The notes under the pieces were generated by a model, which saw nothing but the letters and a program-made list of their open reading frames with translations, had not been told where the DNA came from and did not search any database. A program made the position numbers and the translations under genes. Below are positions 5,451-48,208 of a DNA stretch of 64,000 nucleotides, in pieces. How positions within the stretch are numbered: the stretch's first letter is position 1; each line of letters starts with the position of its first letter. The stretch comes from Escherichia coli (lineage in GTDB: Bacteria > Pseudomonadota > Gammaproteobacteria > Enterobacterales > Enterobacteriaceae). The stretch lies in NCBI RefSeq assembly GCF_003334355.1, contig NZ_QOWP01000010.1; one strand, 5' to 3'.

Positions 5451-6851
5451 TCAGAAGCTGGCGTTGCGCGGAGTACGTGGGAACGGAATCACATCACGCA
5501 CGTTTTGCACGCCAGTTACGTAAGCAATCAGGCGTTCAAAACCAAGACCGAAACCTGAATGCGGAACAGTACCGTAGCGACGCAGATCGCGATACCACCA
5601 GTAATCTTCTTTATTCAGGCCCATTTCCAGCATACGCTCGTCCAGAACGTCCAGACGTTCTTCACGCTGGGAGCCACCAATGATCTCACCGATGCCCGGA
5701 GCCAGAACGTCCATAGCCGCAACGGTTTTACCGTCTTCGTTGAGGCGCATATAGAACGCTTTAATATCTTTCGGATAGTTTTTAACCACTACCGGTGCTT
5801 TAAAGTGTTCTTCCGCCAGATAACGCTCATGCTCAGAAGAGAGATCGACGCCCCAGTAAACCGGGTTTTCAAACTTCCTGCCGCAGTTTTCGAGAATGGT
5901 CACTGCGTCGGTGTAATCCACCTGCGCGAAATCGGCCTCAATGAAGCGTTCCAGACGTGAAACGGCATCTTTATCTACGCGTTCAGCGAAGAATTTCATG
6001 TCGTCTGCGCGTTCTTCGAGAACCGCTTTGAAGACATATTTCAGCATGGCTTCAGCCAGACCCGCGATATCGTTCAGGTTAGCAAACGCCACTTCCGGCT
6101 CCAGCATCCAGAACTCCGCCAGGTGACGGCTGGTGTTGGAGTTTTCAGCACGGAAAGTCGGGCCGAAGGTATAAATTTTGGATAATGCGCAAGCGTAGGT
6201 TTCGCCGTTCAACTGGCCAGATACGGTCAGGAAAGACTCTTTACCAAAGAAGTCTTTGTCGAAATCCACTTTGCCCTGATCGTTACGCGGCAGATTTTCC
6301 AGATCCAGCGTAGAAACGCGGAACATTTCGCCAGCCCCTTCGGTATCAGACGCAGTAATCAGTGGCGTTGAAACCCAGAAGAATCCCTGCTCGTTAAAGA
6401 AGCGATGCAGCGCCTGCGCCAGCGTATGGCGAACGCGCGCGACGGCACCAATCAGGTTTGTGCGCGGACGCAGGTGAGCGACTTCACGCAGATACTCAAT
6501 GCTGTGGCGTTTTGCCGCCATCGGGTAAGTGTCTGGATCTTCAACCCAACCAGCAACTTCAACCTTGCTGGCCTGAATTTCAAATTGTTGCCCCTGGCCC
6601 GGCGACGCCACGACTTTACCCGTCACAATGACCGAGCAACCGGTGGTCAGACGCAGGACGTCTTCATTGTAATTGGGCAGAGAATTATTGATGACAGCCT
6701 GTACAGGATCAAAGCAGGAACCGTCATAAACGGCGAGGAAGGAGATGCCAGCTTTTGAATCTCGGCGGGTACGTACCCATCCGCGTACGGTGACTTCGCT
6801 GTCAACGGCTACGCGGCCCTGGAGTACGTCGGCTACAGGCACAACGCTCAT
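5451..6851 (-). CDS. asnS: asparagine--tRNA ligase AsnS
   Basis: ORF 5451..6896; recognised start [30 protein letters not shown] at the internal ATG (6851); class II aaRS motifs (…FRAE…GFGLGFERL…). Confidence 0.95.
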
Positions 6852-37919: not shown

Positions 37920-38052
37920 TTTTTGCGCCTCGTTATCATCCAAAATACGCCATGAATATCTCCAACGAGATAACACGGTTAAATCCTTCACCGGGGGATC
38001 TGCTCAATATTAACTCTACCGATATCTTCGGCTTATGCCGAGCACCCCTGGC
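37920..38052 (-). promoter_or_regulatory. ompA long 5' untranslated leader (stabilising stem-loops; sRNA target region)
   Basis: minus-strand sequence beginning GCCAGGGGTGCTCGGCATAAGCCGAAGATATCGGTAGAG… matches the known roughly 133-nt ompA leader. Confidence 0.65.
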
Positions 38053-38275
38053 GATGTAAAGTCTACAACGTAGTTGAAAACTTACAAGTGTGAACTCCGT
38101 CAGGCATATGAAAAAAAAGTCTTGTATAAGGTATGTTTAATCTTTTTTGTCAGCGACAATTTACAGAAGAGAATCGCGGAAACCGCTTCAGACAAGCCTC
38201 CGCAAGGAAAATTAGTCACGACTGAAAGCATTGGCTGGGCGACAAAAAAAGTTCCAGGATTAATCCTAAATTTAC

Positions 38276-38785
38276 TTAATGATACAAATTAGAGTGAATT
38301 TTTAGCCCGGAAAGTTGTCTCGTGGCGTGAGAGGATGCGCTTACCGGACGCATAATAAACCCCATAGCGTTACCTTCATTTGCCGCATCAACAAGTTCAG
38401 CATGCTCTTCTTCAGTCAAATCATCTGCCAACCAACCGATCACCACACTGTAATTGCCCGTGCGTAAAGCGCGAACCATTGACTCCACAGTGTGGCAAGG
38501 GGAGAGCTGGCTAATCTGCATTACTTTCGTTAAGGGTAGCCCAGATGCCTGAACCCATTCCCGACTCAGTTTTTGTTGCGGTGTTAACCAGAGTTGCCAG
38601 CGCGATTGCTGACCGAGTTGCTGTAACAATGGCAACAGTAGAAGTTGCGTCATCATGGGCTGATCTTCGCGATAGACAACTTCACTGATAAGCCCGGCTG
38701 TAGTGTTTTCCGTAGAGACACGCGCAATTTTACTTGCTGCGGATGAGAACGACGAAGAACGATGTGCATAGCCTGAAGTGTACAT
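38276..38785 (-). CDS. sulA: SOS cell-division inhibitor SulA
   Basis: ORF 38276..38791; recognised start [38 protein letters not shown]; 169 aa. Confidence 0.95.
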
Positions 38786-38807
38786 AATCAATCCAGCCCC
38801 TGTGAGT

Positions 38808-38827
38808 TACTGTATGGATGTACAGTA
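38808..38827. promoter_or_regulatory. LexA (SOS) box of sulA
   Basis: tactgtatggatgtacagta = CTGT-N8-ACAG palindrome; reverse complement TACTGTACATCCATACAGTA is the published sulA operator; 23 bp upstream of the start codon. Confidence 0.85.
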
Positions 38828-39003
38828 CATCCAGTGACAACAAAGATCAACCCTATTTTCGGAAAGAGCCTCGCAAATTTTGTCGTTGGTGACGGGAAAA
38901 CATAAATTAATCTTGCCCCTTAAGAATAAGTTGCCTATTTTCGTAGTTAACGGATCCGTTAATGTGAATCATTCTTTTATGTTATGATTTTAAAAGGAAT
39001 TTT

Positions 39004-39633
39004 ATGAAAAGCCTCTCCTATAAGCGGATCTATAAATCACAAGAATACCTGGCAACGTTGGGCACAATTGAATACCGATCATTGTTTGGCAGTTACAGCC
39101 TGACCGTTGACGACACGGTGTTTGCGATGGTTTCTGATGGTGAGTTGTATCTTCGGGCTTGTGAGCAAAGTGCACAGTACTGTGTAAAACATCCGCCTGT
39201 CTGGCTGACATATAAAAAGTGTGGCCGATCCGTTACCCTCAATTACTATCGGGTTGATGAAAGTCTATGGCGAAATCAACTGAAGCTGGTGCGTCTGTCG
39301 AAATATTCTCTCGATGCAGCGCTGAAAGAGAAAAGCACGCGCAATACCCGGGAAAGACTGAAAGATTTGCCCAATATGTCTTTTCATCTGGAAGCGATTC
39401 TCGGGGAGGTGGGGATTAAGGATGTACGGGCGTTACGTATACTTGGGGCAAAAATGTGTTGGTTGCGACTGCGGCAGCAAAACAGTCTGGTGACAGAAAA
39501 GATTCTGTTTATGCTTGAAGGTGCCATTATCGGCATTCATGAAGCTGCGCTCCCGGTGGCACGCCGCCAGGAGCTTGCAGAATGGGCTGACTCTCTTACG
39601 CCGAAACAGGAGTTTCCTGCGGAACTTGAGTAA
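39004..39633 (+). CDS. sxy: competence regulator Sxy (TfoX)
   Basis: ORF 209 aa; N-terminus MKSLSYKRIYKSQEYLATLGTIEYRSLFGSYSL. Confidence 0.92.
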   Translation: MKSLSYKRIYKSQEYLATLGTIEYRSLFGSYSLTVDDTVFAMVSDGELYLRACEQSAQYCVKHPPVWLTYKKCGRSVTLNYYRVDESLWRNQLKLVRLSKYSLDAALKEKSTRNTRERLKDLPNMSFHLEAILGEVGIKDVRALRILGAKMCWLRLRQQNSLVTEKILFMLEGAIIGIHEAALPVARRQELAEWADSLTPKQEFPAELE

Positions 39634-41749
39634 TCTGGCGTTGCAGACGACCAATCTCAGGCAGTAATGCAATCAATAATCCAACTTGTTGTACGACCAG
39701 AGGTTCTTTGCTGTCTGCCCGTGGTTCAAGTTGCTGCATCCGCTGTTTCAGGCTAGCTAATGCCTCATTGACGCGTTCTTCATCAGCAGGTTGATGATGT
39801 AACGCGTCATCAACATAGCAAACTGCGTCATCAAGAAACGCCAGAATTTCAGGATTAGTTAACTGCTCCCGGTGAGCACCGAGGGCTGAGATATAGCTGG
39901 TAAACGTATGGTTAAGGCACAGCAACCGAAACGCGGCTTCGCGAATTTGCGGGGTAACGTTCGGCTCGCTGGACATATTTGATACCACCGACGCCAGCTC
40001 AGCATCACGGTTGTGTGCATCGCGGCGGGCAATACGATACGCCAGACGGTTATCACGCCCCTGATGGTATTGCTCCAGTATGGCATCGAGATACCGACAG
40101 TTGGCCTCTGTGGCGCGTTCGAGCATGCGCGGCAGATTGCGAAACTGCCAGTCAGGCCAGATGTAGCTCACTGCCGCCCACGCAATGGCACAACCAATCA
40201 GCGTATCGATTACGCGAGGTAACGCTACTTCAAAACCTTCACCCAGTAAGTTAAAACACAGTAGCACCAAAAGTGTGATGAACATCGTTGCATGAGCGTA
40301 TTGCACGTTACGGAAGGCAAAAAAGAGCACGCCGGTAATAACCAGCAGCACCAGCTGCCCTTCCAGTGATGGCACAAACCACAGCACAGGAATGCCAATG
40401 GCGATACCTACCAGCGTACCAATAATCCTTAACTTCAGGCGGTGGCGCGTGGCGTTATAGTTTGGCTGGCAGACAAACAAACTTGTCAGCAAGATCCAAT
40501 ACCCGTGATGCATTCCGGTTATCTGAATGATGGCGTAGCCGAAGCACAACACCAGCGACATTCTTACCGCATGACGGAAGAGGGCGGATTCCGGCGTGAA
40601 GTGACGGCTAAGACGCAGCCAGATATCACTCAACCCGTGCGGGCTGTCATCAGCGAGCTCATTTTCGTCATTATTATGGGGTAGTGCCTGGGCCTGTTCT
40701 GATTCAATTGTTGCCAGTTGGGCATCAATGGCGCGTAAATTGTTCAGCAAAAATCCCAGTGTTTTGAGTAAATCGGCGGGTGCGCCGTTATCGCGCATCC
40801 GCTCCAGCGCAGCATCAATATGCGTAAAAGCGCGCTCAAAATGCGGATCATGTTGATAAGGCTGACGCAACAAAATACAGCGTGACAGTTGCTGGCACGC
40901 CTGGCCCTGCATCGACATCAGCCGCTGAAAACGGAACAGCACGTCGCTGTGGCGAAAATGTTCACGCAATGTTTGATACTGAATATGAGAAGAGCTGGCA
41001 CGCTCGTGAATATCCTGTGCGACAAAGTAATAATGCAGCGTGCGACGCGTTCCCCGTTGACCACGATCGCCACGTAAGCGGGTCAGCAGCGAGAGTTTCG
41101 TCTGATTCAATGTCGCCATCAGCAGACCGTTGGCGAGAGCCAAATCGTACAGCGGTGCCTGGCTTTGATCTTCAATATCAGGATCAAACATGCGCGACTT
41201 GAGCTCAAGATAACGCGCCAGTTGTTCATAGCAACGCGCCAGGTTGTCCTGCAGCGGGCGGACCGGGAACAGCAGATGACCAATAAGTGTCAGGACGTTG
41301 TACCAGACGGCACCGGCCAGCAGATACATCGGCTGCTGATACCAGTGCTCATACAGTGATGTTCCCAACATAGTGTAAATGGCGATCAGCAATGCACCGA
41401 AGGCAATTGTTGCATAGCGTTGACCCAGACCGCCGAGCAAAATGAAGCCGCTGGTAGAGAGCGTTAAGCCAATCGCAAATAGCCAGGGCCAGGGAAACAG
41501 CAATTCTACTGAGGCCGAGGCGATAAAAAAGCAGAACAGCGTAATGATGAGGTTACGCAAACGTCCCGCCAGTCGGTCATCGAGATCGGTCAGCGCCGCT
41601 GCCACCATCCCCAGCGTTAGCGGAATCGTCAGTTTTACATCACCCAGCCACCACGGAAACGCTGTGGTTCCACAAAGCGCAATAAAAATACGCGCGTAAT
41701 ACAGCCAGGCGCTGTTCCAGGTATAGCGTTTGAGCAAAGGACTTAGCAT
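39596..41749 (-). CDS. yccS: inner membrane protein YccS (FUSC-like putative efflux family)
   Basis: ORF 39596..41758, 720 aa; two hydrophobic multi-span blocks separated by a large soluble region; start assigned at MLSPLLKRYTWNSAW (an in-frame ATG 9 nt upstream is also possible); 3' end overlaps sxy by 38 bp. Confidence 0.85.
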   Translation of the reverse strand: MLSPLLKRYTWNSAWLYYARIFIALCGTTAFPWWLGDVKLTIPLTLGMVAAALTDLDDRLAGRLRNLIITLFCFFIASASVELLFPWPWLFAIGLTLSTSGFILLGGLGQRYATIAFGALLIAIYTMLGTSLYEHWYQQPMYLLAGAVWYNVLTLIGHLLFPVRPLQDNLARCYEQLARYLELKSRMFDPDIEDQSQAPLYDLALANGLLMATLNQTKLSLLTRLRGDRGQRGTRRTLHYYFVAQDIHERASSSHIQYQTLREHFRHSDVLFRFQRLMSMQGQACQQLSRCILLRQPYQHDPHFERAFTHIDAALERMRDNGAPADLLKTLGFLLNNLRAIDAQLATIESEQAQALPHNNDENELADDSPHGLSDIWLRLSRHFTPESALFRHAVRMSLVLCFGYAIIQITGMHHGYWILLTSLFVCQPNYNATRHRLKLRIIGTLVGIAIGIPVLWFVPSLEGQLVLLVITGVLFFAFRNVQYAHATMFITLLVLLCFNLLGEGFEVALPRVIDTLIGCAIAWAAVSYIWPDWQFRNLPRMLERATEANCRYLDAILEQYHQGRDNRLAYRIARRDAHNRDAELASVVSNMSSEPNVTPQIREAAFRLLCLNHTFTSYISALGAHREQLTNPEILAFLDDAVCYVDDALHHQPADEERVNEALASLKQRMQQLEPRADSKEPLVVQQVGLLIALLPEIGRLQRQITQVPQETPVSA

Positions 41750-41767
41750 AAAGGCCATATTAGTGGA

Positions 41768-42214
41768 TTATTCAAAACGACGACGTGCATTGGCTTCACG
41801 CGCAGCTTGCGCTGTTTCTACCGATACCACGCGACGACCAACCGGCCATAGTGCAATAGCGGCAATTTTAAAGTTCGCAATGCCGACAGGAATGCCAATG
41901 ATTGAAATACATTGTGCGATGCCCGTTGCAATGTGCATCAGGCATAACCACCAGCCAAAGAAAATCAGCCAGAAAATATTCAATACCGTACCGCCAGTAT
42001 TCAGCAGCACATTTTTGCCAGCCGGGTTCAGTTCATCGACATGAATAGCTTCATTGCCATAAGGCACCAGAGACAGTTTAGTGATCTCCCAGCAGGATCG
42101 TGTCAGCGGTAAGGTAAAAATCAGCACAATACTGACCAGAGTCGCCAACAGCCAGCCCAGAGTGGTGGCAAATCCGCCAAGCACAAAGTTCAGAATGTTC
42201 AAAACGGTACGCAT
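41768..42214 (-). CDS. yccF: inner membrane protein YccF
   Basis: ORF 148 aa; small hydrophobic protein immediately upstream of yccS on the same strand. Confidence 0.88.
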   Translation of the reverse strand: MRTVLNILNFVLGGFATTLGWLLATLVSIVLIFTLPLTRSCWEITKLSLVPYGNEAIHVDELNPAGKNVLLNTGGTVLNIFWLIFFGWWLCLMHIATGIAQCISIIGIPVGIANFKIAAIALWPVGRRVVSVETAQAAREANARRRFE

Positions 42215-42336
42215 AAAACCTCGCTTTACTGTGGTTTTCAGTAATGGGCGGCAATTGTAACGTTTTTTTGGGCTGGAGCACGTTTTCTCTGACGGTTACA
42301 CTGATAAGAAATAATTTCGTGTGGATCTACAGAGTC

Positions 42337-44391
42337 ATGGAACTGAAAGCGACAACGCTTGGAAAACGTCTGGCACAGCACCCTTACGATCGGGCGGTGA
42401 TCCTCAATGCCGGGATTAAAGTCTCCGGCGATCGCCACGAATACCTTATTCCTTTCAATCAATTACTGGCGATTCACTGTAAGCGCGGTCTGGTATGGGG
42501 CGAGCTGGAATTTGTACTGCCGGACGAAAAAGTGGTGCGTCTGCACGGCACCGAATGGGGCGAGACGCAGCGTTTTTACCATCATCTTGATGCTCACTGG
42601 CGGCGGTGGAGTGGCGAGATGAGCGAAATTGCGTCTGGTGTTTTACGCCAGCAACTGGATTTGATTGCCACGCGCACTGGAGAAAATAAATGGCTGACGC
42701 GTGAGCAAACCTCTGGCGTTCAGCAACAAATCCGCCAGGCTTTGTCGGCGTTGCCGTTGCCGGTTAACCGACTGGAAGAATTCGATAACTGCCGTGAGGC
42801 GTGGCGTAAATGTCAGGCCTGGTTGAAAGATATTGAAAGCGCTCGGTTGCAGCATAACCAGGCGTATACCGAAGCCATGCTTACCGAGTATGCGGATTTT
42901 TTCCGCCAGGTCGAGTCTTCACCGCTGAATCCGGCGCAGGCCCGGGCAGTCGTTAATGGCGAGCATTCTCTGTTAGTGCTGGCAGGTGCAGGAAGCGGAA
43001 AAACGTCGGTGCTGGTGGCCCGTGCAGGCTGGTTGCTGGCGCGTGGTGAAGCGTCCCCTGAGCAAATTTTATTGCTGGCGTTTGGTCGCAAAGCCGCTGA
43101 AGAGATGGACGAGCGGATTCGCGAACGGCTACATACCGAAGACATTACCGCACGCACGTTTCATGCGCTGGCGCTGCATATTATTCAGCAGGGCAGCAAA
43201 AAAGTTCCGATAGTCAGCAAACTGGAAAATGATACCGCTGCCCGTCATGAACTCTTTATTGCTGAGTGGCGCAAGCAATGCAGCGAAAAGAAAGCGCAGG
43301 CGAAGGGCTGGCGGCAATGGCTGACGGAAGAAATGCAGTGGTCAGTGCCAGAAGGTAACTTCTGGGATGATGAAAAATTACAGCGTCGCCTTGCCTCTCG
43401 CCTCGATCGCTGGGTAAGTCTGATGCGGATGCACGGTGGTGCACAGGCAGAAATGATTGCCAGTGCACCCGAAGAGATTCGCGATCTGTTCAGTAAACGT
43501 ATCAAGTTGATGGCCCCGTTATTAAAAGCCTGGAAAGGTGCGCTGAAGGCAGAAAACGCTGTCGATTTTTCGGGCCTTATTCATCAGGCGATTGTGATTC
43601 TGGAGAAAGGTCGCTTTATCAGCCCGTGGAAGCATATTCTGGTTGATGAATTTCAGGATATCTCGCCGCAGCGGGCAGCGTTGTTAGCGGCATTACGCAA
43701 GCAAAACAGTCAGACGACGTTGTTCGCTGTTGGTGATGACTGGCAGGCGATTTACCGATTCAGCGGTGCGCAAATGTCGCTCACCACCGCTTTCCATGAA
43801 AACTTTGGTGAAGGCGAACGCTGTGATTTAGACACGACTTACCGTTTTAACAGTCGTATCGGTGAGGTGGCAAACCGGTTTATTCAGCAGAACCCAGGCC
43901 AGCTGAAAAAGCCGCTAAACAGCTTAACCAATGGAGACAAAAAAGCCGTCACGTTATTGGATGAGAGTCAACTTGACGCTTTGCTGGATAAGCTCTCTGG
44001 TTATGCCAAACCGGAAGAGCGCATTCTGATCCTGGCGCGTTACCATCACATGAGGCCTGCCAGCCTGGAAAAAGCGGCAACACGCTGGCCGAAGTTGCAA
44101 ATCGACTTTATGACCATTCATGCCAGCAAAGGGCAACAGGCGGATTACGTCATCATCGTTGGCTTGCAGGAGGGAAGTGATGGTTTTCCGGCTGCGGCGC
44201 GGGAGTCGATTATGGAAGAGGCGCTACTGCCACCGGTTGAGGATTTCCCGAACGCTGAAGAACGGCGGTTAATGTACGTGGCGCTGACCCGGGCACGCCA
44301 TCGGGTATGGGCACTGTTTAACAAAGAGAATCCCTCTCCCTTTGTGGAAATACTGAAAAATCTGGATGTGCCGGTGGCGAGAAAACCGTAA
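42337..44391 (+). CDS. helD: DNA helicase IV HelD
   Basis: ORF 42244..44391; recognised start MELKATTLGKRLAQHPYDRAVILNAG at ATG 42337; UvrD-like Walker A VLAGAGSGKTS. Confidence 0.94.
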   Translation: MELKATTLGKRLAQHPYDRAVILNAGIKVSGDRHEYLIPFNQLLAIHCKRGLVWGELEFVLPDEKVVRLHGTEWGETQRFYHHLDAHWRRWSGEMSEIASGVLRQQLDLIATRTGENKWLTREQTSGVQQQIRQALSALPLPVNRLEEFDNCREAWRKCQAWLKDIESARLQHNQAYTEAMLTEYADFFRQVESSPLNPAQARAVVNGEHSLLVLAGAGSGKTSVLVARAGWLLARGEASPEQILLLAFGRKAAEEMDERIRERLHTEDITARTFHALALHIIQQGSKKVPIVSKLENDTAARHELFIAEWRKQCSEKKAQAKGWRQWLTEEMQWSVPEGNFWDDEKLQRRLASRLDRWVSLMRMHGGAQAEMIASAPEEIRDLFSKRIKLMAPLLKAWKGALKAENAVDFSGLIHQAIVILEKGRFISPWKHILVDEFQDISPQRAALLAALRKQNSQTTLFAVGDDWQAIYRFSGAQMSLTTAFHENFGEGERCDLDTTYRFNSRIGEVANRFIQQNPGQLKKPLNSLTNGDKKAVTLLDESQLDALLDKLSGYAKPEERILILARYHHMRPASLEKAATRWPKLQIDFMTIHASKGQQADYVIIVGLQEGSDGFPAAARESIMEEALLPPVEDFPNAEERRLMYVALTRARHRVWALFNKENPSPFVEILKNLDVPVARKP

Positions 44392-47929: not shown

Positions 47930-48208
47930 ATGTCGAAAGTCTGCATAATTGCCTGGGTTTACGGGCGAGTTCAGGGCGTAGGATTTCGCTACACCACACA
48001 GTACGAAGCGAAAAGACTGGGTTTAACCGGGTACGCCAAAAATCTTGACGATGGCAGCGTGGAAGTGGTTGCTTGCGGTGAAGAAGGGCAGGTGGAAAAA
48101 TTAATGCAGTGGTTAAAGAGTGGCGGCCCGCGTTCTGCGCGTGTAGAACGGGTGCTCAGCGAGCCGCATCATCCCTCGGGGGAATTAACCGATTTTCGTA
48201 TCCGTTAA
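47930..48208 (+). CDS. acyP: acylphosphatase AcyP (YccX)
   Basis: ORF 47717..48208; recognised start [38 protein letters not shown] (acylphosphatase signature) at ATG 47930. Confidence 0.9.

Follow-up and report, generated by a model that had tools for sequence, protein, structure and literature searches.

The plant ALMT/QUAC channels (AtALMT1, AtALMT9 and GmALMT12; PDB 7vq3, 8hiw and 7w6k) have the same fold unit as the Escherichia coli membrane protein YccS, with six transmembrane helices preceding a helical domain in the cytoplasm. Both belong to a common Pfam clan (FUSC), with a weak direct match of YccS to ALMT. The plant channels are homodimers of one such unit, whereas a single YccS chain contains two units that have diverged, and YccS can be regarded as a pseudo-heterodimer. 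The sequence identity between ALMTs and YccS is 12–16%, and channel activity of YccS is a prediction from the fold.

The superfamily (Pfam FUSC) and the duplicated two-repeat design are also found in AaeB, MdtO and FusC. The genes of these proteins adjoin those of membrane-fusion-protein partners, and the proteins act together with an outer-membrane channel, whereas yccS has no such neighbour. Within E. coli the paralogue YhfK (TIGR01667) has the family and the architecture of YccS at an identity of 24%. Its gene follows crp at a distance of 50 bp in the same orientation and, unlike yccS, is not found beside yccF or sxy.

With regard to transcription, the convergent genes sxy and yccS are explicitly included in the convergent excludons and overlapping convergent operons described for E. 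coli (Conway 2014; ExcludonFinder 2025). In well-studied excludons the two units have been shown to repress each other, whereas the sxy-yccS pair is known from transcript overlap alone.

We analyzed the locus in a window of 64,000 nucleotides from an E. coli contig (NZ_QOWP01000010.1). The reading we favor, with a probability of about 0.78, is that of an ordinary core-genome locus in which yccF and yccS form a weak operon, YccS is an ALMT-like single chain, the overlap between sxy and yccS results from drift, and the overlap of their transcripts is already catalogued. Genes, operon, overlap and overlapping transcription are already covered by public annotation or by published catalogues of transcriptomes. 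The initial annotation had conceded that established knowledge could render the gene pair unremarkable, and this is largely the case. The finding as it stands matters little, with two modest points to be made about the description of YccS and a possible damping of Sxy.

Gene order and conservation of the locus

According to the list of open reading frames and the sequence itself, sxy (tfoX; 209 aa), which codes for the co-activator of the CRP-S regulon, occupies positions 39004–39633 on the plus strand, and yccF (148 aa) positions 41768–42214 on the minus strand. The gene yccS is located between them on the minus strand, with its stop codon at 39596–39598 and two possible start codons: the first ATG at 41758 leads to a protein of 720 aa, the second at 41749 to one of 717 aa. 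These coordinates match the lengths (148 and about 717 aa) and the shared strand initially given for yccF and yccS, and the coding overlap of 38 bp ascribed to sxy and yccS is exact (39596–39633, both strands; coordinates and RefSeq annotation). The identities of the three genes are backed by RefSeq annotation, Pfam and NCBIfam. In the RefSeq annotation the neighbors of yccFS are helD, sxy and sulA, and none of the 5426 complete E. coli genomes covered lacks the sxy/yccS/yccF locus. It is ordinary, already annotated DNA from the core genome of E. coli K-12.

A search for known RNA families in 38000–43000 found none. CRP consensus sites with at most two mismatches were absent from 38700–42400, and their count across the whole window was below that expected by chance. 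Models of anti-phage defence matched neither YccS nor YccF.

The yccF-yccS operon

The yccF stop is separated from the yccS start by 18 bp in the 717-aa form (spacer at 41750–41767, minus strand), compared to 9 bp for the 720-aa start given by RefSeq/PGAP. A comparison of 73 orthologous loci places the ATG of the conserved MLSPLL start 17–21 nt past the yccF stop across Enterobacteriaceae, and the upstream ATG of the 720-aa form is limited to Escherichia and some Citrobacter. This comparison of orthologous starts favors the 717-aa form over the RefSeq start, and the 18-bp distance proposed initially is right for it. The coding sequence of yccS would then extend over 39596–41749 (to 41758 in RefSeq). 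A strong Shine-Dalgarno sequence was not seen in the E. coli spacer.

In 73 of 80 Enterobacterales loci yccF immediately precedes yccS in the same orientation, usually at a distance of 6–33 bp. A yccFS operon that converges on sxy has been delimited by strand-specific RNA-seq (Conway 2014, PMC4161252). Together with the shared strand, the short spacer of either length and the conserved adjacency, this is in agreement with the single operon suggested by the initial annotation. A lacZ fusion of the yccF promoter gave 175–210 units over a background of 30–45 (approximately 5-fold), with a marginal effect of FNR (PMC1802558). The promoter is presumed to lie in the divergent intergenic region between yccF and helD (42215–42336), in which a consensus sigma-70 scan detected no promoter-like site. 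The two genes probably form a weakly expressed operon whose transcription would start from this region.

The sxy/yccS junction

The overlap in E. coli comprises the last approximately 12 codons and the stop codon of both yccS and sxy. In a comparison of 77 Enterobacterales species the two coding sequences are at most 139 bp apart and overlap by at most about 60 bp, except for a single outlier at 120 bp; the median is an overlap of 4 bp, and nearly all loci fall within about −62 to +62 bp. The genes overlap at 50 of the 77 loci (16 of these by 4 bp) and are separated by gaps at the remaining 27. In Sxy a variable C-terminal tail (residues about 195–209) follows the conserved core, which ends in ELAEW. 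Past the conserved cores the tails of both Sxy and YccS are hypervariable, differing in length as well as sequence already between E. coli and E. albertii, and the YccS tail (residues 711–720 in 720-aa numbering; 39599–39628, minus strand) has a pLDDT of 61 in the AF2 model, falling below 50 for residues 718–720.

Because the junction lies in hypervariable C-terminal tails, of which that of YccS is modelled with low confidence, the overlap appears to be a product of drift between two closely packed convergent genes. The two genes would stand tail to tail throughout Enterobacterales while their stop codons drift in unconstrained tails, and in E. coli both tails would happen to be long, leading to the overlap of 38 bp. 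Overlapping coding sequences occur in three of the ten convergent pairs of the window.

A consensus scan near 39596–39633 found no intrinsic terminator, and the fold z-scores at the junction (−1.4 and −1.95 for the two strands) are unremarkable. None of the three genes yccF, yccS and sxy is listed in the Term-seq supplement of Adams 2021. The initial claim that no room is left for independent terminators is borne out by the length of the overlap, the scan and the folding. As the junction has no intrinsic terminator, the sxy and yccS transcripts necessarily run antisense into each other. They are presumably stopped by Rho; the single pointer to this is a C-rich segment at about 39350–39500 on the strand sense for yccS.

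Overlapping transcription and Sxy

Sxy is the limiting regulator of the E. coli competence genes and is kept at very low levels through several mechanisms; its partner in turning on the CRP-S competence regulon is CRP. If yccFS antisense transcription damped Sxy, this would represent one more layer on a poorly understood competence switch. The low level of Sxy would suit an overlap that acts as a selected device, that is, as a functional excludon. Sxy would then be lowered by yccFS transcription that extends across the 3' end of sxy, and yccFS by sxy transcription, through collision of RNA polymerases or cleavage of the duplex RNA by RNase III, with the effect that competence induction and YccFS are mutually exclusive. 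The junction lacking an intrinsic terminator is an argument for such an arrangement, as is the coding overlap, which makes overlapping antisense transcripts unavoidable if both genes are expressed and guarantees complementary 3' ends if both are fully transcribed. The pair is one of the 165 convergent excludons catalogued for MG1655, with the excludon being called in at least 50% of 58 transcriptomes of this strain (ExcludonFinder, NAR 2025, PMC12288877, Table 1).

However, ExcludonFinder flags every convergent pair of the window with overlapping coding sequences (tusE/yccX, ycbX/zapC and sxy/yccS), so that the listing of sxy-yccS is close to automatic. Neither the length nor the sequence of the overlap is conserved, and the tails in which it falls are variable. 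Both points speak against selection of the overlap itself as a means of regulation; some of the gaps found in its place contain terminator-like hairpins, as in Yersinia nurmii and Photorhabdus. Both transcription units are weakly expressed, as seen with the yccF promoter fusion, and collisions should be rare. A literature search for regulation of Sxy by yccS, or for interference between both transcription units, found no paper. What does persist in the 77 species is the tail-to-tail packing with little or no spacer, and such packing, conserved over the whole order, is also expected of a selected antisense relationship. In our view the comparative data make a selected role of the overlap unlikely, and the regulatory consequence of the transcript overlap for Sxy is probably small and is unproven.

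Domain organization of YccS

Within the FUSC/ArAE/ALMT superfamily YccS falls into the YccS/YhfK branch. It matches the NCBIfam model TIGR01666 with 1262.4 bits (cutoff 470.75), covering profile positions 1–705 of 705, and the YccS/YhfK subfamily model TIGR01667 with 1165 bits. Pfam matches were obtained for FUSC-like (PF12805, E 2.5e-113, residues 66–345), FUSC_2 (PF13515, E 8.5e-29, residues 405–525) and FUSC (PF04632, E 9.4e-10).

In the AF2 model (pLDDT 94.5, pTM 0.93) a unit of six-helix membrane domain and cytoplasmic helical bundle is duplicated in tandem within the chain. In the 720-aa numbering and on the minus strand, repeat 1 consists of a membrane block of six helices (residues 16–163; 41270–41713) and a soluble helical-bundle domain (residues 167–354; 40697–41260). 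Repeat 2 is made up of a second membrane block (residues 392–532; 40163–40585), also indicated by Pfam FUSC_2 and hhalign, and a second soluble helical domain (residues 538–710; 39629–40147). The N-terminal half aligns with the C-terminal half in hhalign over 190 columns with a probability of 94.9% and an E-value of 4.2e-8. Residues R399, W421, T437, R444, G447, G451 and R515 in the membrane block of repeat 2 are invariant within the family.

YccS thus has the six-helix membrane domain with adjoining cytoplasmic helical domain by which the ALMT-type fold is recognized. The two units that build a pore in the FUSC/ArAE/ALMT superfamily are provided by the internal duplication, as detected by hhalign. 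The tandem duplication therefore lets a single chain reproduce the homodimer of the plant ALMT anion channels. The initial annotation had described an uncharacterized protein with two membrane blocks around a large soluble region. The two blocks are confirmed, but the single soluble region between them is not, as the AF2 model places a second soluble domain after the second block. The term "uncharacterized" is right in so far as we found no paper assigning a function, and overstated with respect to the TIGR01666/FUSC clan assignment and the ALMT-like fold, which are clear.

YccF and its linkage to yccS

YccF is a small, strongly conserved membrane protein consisting of two YccF repeats (PF03733, E 3.4e-18 and 5.3e-09). 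It matches NF008739 with 298.3 bits (cutoff 213), and its mean column identity across Enterobacterales is 82%. The AF2 model of YccF is poor (pLDDT 64.7), and a search of solved structures with its sequence gave no match.

The linkage of yccF and yccS is confined to Enterobacterales, the only order returned by a genome scan for yccS loci with an alignment of 13 closer sequences, and it is lost in some genera. An ancient yccF-yccS module was considered and rejected: six more distant representatives of the YccS family have unrelated neighbors and are linked neither to yccF nor to sxy.

Possible function of YccS

Judged from the model and by analogy to the ALMTs, YccS would most likely be an anion or organic-acid channel or exporter. 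The anion, probably an organic acid, would pass between the two membrane repeats, and YccS would act alone without a periplasmic adaptor, with YccF as a possible accessory partner. Such an anion-channel mechanism is derived from fold homology at the low identity given above. A search of solved structures with the YccS sequence returned a marginal match to ALMT12 alone (E 0.14). Describing YccS as the bacterial counterpart, in a single chain, of the dimeric ALMT anion channel provides a testable functional hypothesis for a y-gene.

Alternatively, YccS could resemble its FUSC-family relatives AaeB and MdtO and act as the inner-membrane pump in tripartite, TolC-dependent efflux, with YccF as its dedicated small subunit. 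The matches to Pfam FUSC families, the duplicated architecture known from FUSC-family efflux proteins, a weak NCBIfam match to MdtO (E 2e-5) and the tight coupling of yccF upstream of yccS are consistent with this, but the MdtO score amounts to 23 bits against a cutoff of 821. Furthermore, no gene for a membrane-fusion (HlyD-type) partner adjoins yccS in the E. coli locus or in the 80 Enterobacterales loci, and no outer-membrane-factor gene is found beside it, the neighbors being yccF, helD and sxy. The confident solved-structure matches of YccS are all stand-alone ALMT channels. As for the dedicated subunit, yccF is absent from Photorhabdus, Xenorhabdus and Superficieibacter, which keep yccS, and it is not adjacent to the YccS-family genes of the six more distant lineages. 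Because some genera have lost yccF and kept yccS, YccS is not strictly dependent on YccF. We regard the efflux pump as very unlikely.

It is hardly credible that the adjacency of yccS to sxy and of yhfK to crp is non-random, with single-chain ALMT-like channels moving an anion tied to the CRP-S circuit (e.g. cAMP or a nucleotide-derived acid) and the antisense overlap coupling channel and regulator.

Our literature search for a function of YccS, YccF or YhfK yielded no functional assignment and incidental mentions alone. Among these are an entry for yccS in a Keio screen, the appearance of YccF in a screen for YidC dependence, and the listing of yccF as an SOS candidate, which was not induced.

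Gene organization of the locus

The segment is E. coli K-12 chromosome and the locus is already known, with an annotated K-12 gene order of ompA, sulA, sxy, yccS, yccF, helD, mgsA. A 3.4-kb query covering sxy-yccS-yccF was matched in 5426 out of 5426 complete E. coli genomes, mostly at an identity of at least 99%, and the features under these matches are annotated as sxy, yccS and yccF. According to the ORF list and the raw sequence, sxy occupies 39004-39633 on the plus strand (209 aa) and yccF 41768-42214 on the minus strand (148 aa). The yccS gene, also on the minus strand, extends from 39596 either to 41758 (first ATG, 720 aa, RefSeq) or to 41749 (second ATG, 717 aa, as in the older K-12 annotation), and its coding region shares exactly 38 bp with that of sxy (39596-39633). 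The spacer between yccF and yccS measures 18 bp to the 717-aa start and 9 bp to the 720-aa start. All numbers of the initial annotation (the 38-bp overlap, the 18-bp spacer and the lengths of 148 and 717 aa) match these data, and it was right to regard yccF and yccS as one operon.

To decide between the two start codons, 73 orthologous loci were compared. All across the Enterobacteriaceae the methionine of MLSPLL(R/K)RY lies 17-21 nt past the yccF stop. The first ATG, 9 nt past that stop, is restricted to Escherichia and some Citrobacter; two Citrobacter species carry AAG or AAA at its position. Because the second ATG alone is conserved across Enterobacterales, the RefSeq/PGAP start at 41758 is doubted: it is probably three codons too long, and the comparison favors the 717-aa start of the initial annotation.

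The overlap between sxy and yccS

The yccS locus was taken from 80 Enterobacterales species, and yccF, sxy, helD and sulA were placed in each by tblastn. The gene order helD / yccF-yccS / sxy / sulA is kept across the whole order, and sxy is convergent with yccS in 77 loci. At these 77 junctions the widest gap measures 139 bp (Yersinia nurmii) and the overlaps extend to about 60 bp, apart from one outlier of 120 bp that is probably a frameshifted gene end. The genes overlap in 50 loci and are separated by a gap in 27, the median being a 4-bp overlap; 16 out of the 50 overlapping loci show the minimal 4-bp overlap of interlocked stop codons. Longer overlaps differ by taxon (38 bp in E. coli, 41 in E. 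albertii, 23 in most Citrobacter, 44 in Enterobacter). The conserved feature of the junction is the very tight tail-to-tail packing of both genes.

The conserved cores of both proteins stop well short of the stop codons, YccS at ...LLPE(I/L)xxLxxQ(I/V) and Sxy at ...ELxEW, and past these cores the tails are of variable length and sequence, those of E. coli already differing from those of E. albertii. The last helix of the YccS model reaches residue 710, while the final ten residues have a mean pLDDT of 61 and the last three fall below 50. Since the tails vary and the YccS end is of low confidence, the overlap is placed in unconstrained protein tails, with its length drifting. We argue from this sequence comparison that the coding overlap is a by-product of stop-codon drift in the dispensable tails of a tightly packed convergent pair.

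Transcription and termination

That the overlap has a real regulatory effect on Sxy is the alternative. The sxy-yccS pair is among the 165 convergent excludons detected in 50% or more of 58 MG1655 transcriptomes (ExcludonFinder, NAR 2025, PMC12288877), and the region serves as a figure example in the strand-specific, single-nucleotide RNA-seq operon maps of Conway et al. 2014 (PMC4161252). According to the same paper, transcription runs into the opposite operon for 276 out of 370 convergent operons of E. coli, over a mean length of 286 nt, so that such read-through is the rule and not the exception. Within the 64-kb window 3 out of 10 convergent CDS pairs overlap, namely tusE/yccX (48205-48208) and ycbX/zapC (24357-24360) by 4 bp each and sxy/yccS by 38 bp, and these are consecutive entries of the ExcludonFinder MG1655 list (PMC12288877). 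As all three carry it, the excludon label is near-automatic for CDS overlaps. A literature search returned no paper tying yccS to Sxy regulation, and we consider such an effect improbable. The mutual transcriptional interference between sxy and yccFS raised by the initial annotation is a legitimate, if unproven, suggestion that is already implicit in the two published catalogues.

The initial annotation also saw no space for separate terminators, which holds as far as intrinsic terminators at the junction are concerned. A consensus scan found no terminator-like hairpin at or near 39596-39633, and each strand folds across it with ordinary energies (z-scores of -1.4 and -1.95). Rfam gave no match within 38000-43000. 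Among the relatives' sxy-yccS spacers, terminator-like hairpins occur in Yersinia nurmii (sxy strand) and Photorhabdus (yccS strand); the Hafnia spacer has none. Because an intrinsic terminator is missing at the E. coli junction, both transcripts must each enter the opposite gene. The yccS-sense (minus) strand is C-rich and G-poor at about 39350-39500 (plus-strand GC skew +0.39 to +0.42), 100-250 nt beyond the yccS stop and within antisense sxy. This stretch is a plausible candidate for a Rho loading site that could end the yccFS transcript.

In an FNR ChIP-chip study the cloned yccF promoter region was weakly active (175-210 units vs 30-45 for the empty vector), with a marginal effect of fnr on it and likewise on the helD promoter (PMC1802558). 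The published FNR ChIP site of yccF/helD (AGTAATTGATTGAAAGGAATAAGG) is located at 42444-42467, within the helD coding sequence and not intergenic, with the yccF start codon about 230-250 bp downstream of it. A CRP ChIP-seq peak without motif has been reported within yccS of ETEC (PMC4287617).

Domain organization of YccS and YccF

YccS scores 1262 bits on TIGR01666 (cutoff 471), contains the Pfam domains FUSC-like, FUSC_2 and FUSC, and has 5539 relatives in a library-wide search. An AlphaFold2 model built from an alignment of 88 of these is all-helical and of very high confidence (pLDDT 94.5, pTM 0.93). It begins with a membrane block of six helices (residues 16-163) followed by a soluble helical domain (167-354); the second half repeats this order, with a membrane block at 392-532 and a helical domain at 538-710. 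The N- and C-terminal halves are homologous (hhalign probability 94.9%, E 4e-8). As the ALMT anion channels of plants are homodimers, YccS is a single-chain pseudo-dimer of ALMT design. The family-invariant R399, R444 and R515 in the relatives' alignment all fall within the second membrane block and are candidate residues of an anion path.

In contrast to the tripartite pumps AaeAB and MdtNOP, the K-12 annotation has no membrane-fusion-protein gene beside yccS, which argues against a resemblance, and the score on the MdtO model is far below the cutoff. Our best guess is that YccS works on its own in the inner membrane, as a channel or exporter of anions or organic acids; we hold this to be about as likely as not. 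A literature search for YccS, YccF and E. coli YhfK yielded no paper giving a function to any of them. The sole yccS phenotype found concerns the membrane-potential dye diS-C3(5): the knockout is listed among the Keio strains that most alter its steady-state accumulation (PMC6704527, Table 1).

YccF comprises two PF03733 repeats (Pfam) and is strikingly conserved, with a mean column identity of 82% across Enterobacterales; its model, from a shallow orthologue set only, is poor (pLDDT 64.7). YccF-GFP has been described as mislocalised upon YidC depletion, and yccF was listed among SOS candidate genes, with no induction.

Photorhabdus, Xenorhabdus and Superficieibacter (S. electus) have lost the yccF gene from its position between helD and yccS, with yccS intact in all (fetched loci L029, L070, L072 and L078-L081, around 5800-6000). 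Around the YccS-family genes of six more distant lineages the neighbourhood is unrelated and contains no gene with a YccF, TfoX or CRP domain, which rules out an ancient yccF-yccS two-component module. The loss in three genera together with this missing linkage indicates that the pairing is a lineage-specific operon. Neither sxy nor sulA is near yccS in the two Xenorhabdus loci, and in Superficieibacter electus an insertion of about 2.3 kb separates yccS from sxy.

Sxy and CRP act as partners in switching on the CRP-S competence regulon. The paralogue YhfK is 24% identical to YccS, and yhfK follows crp on the same strand after 50 bp (E. coli K-12 crp-yhfK locus L089, 8482-11255). The placement may be a coincidence, given the unrelated neighbours of the six more distant family members; each of the two E. 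coli paralogues is located directly 3' of one CRP-S partner, yhfK of crp and yccS of sxy (39004-41758).
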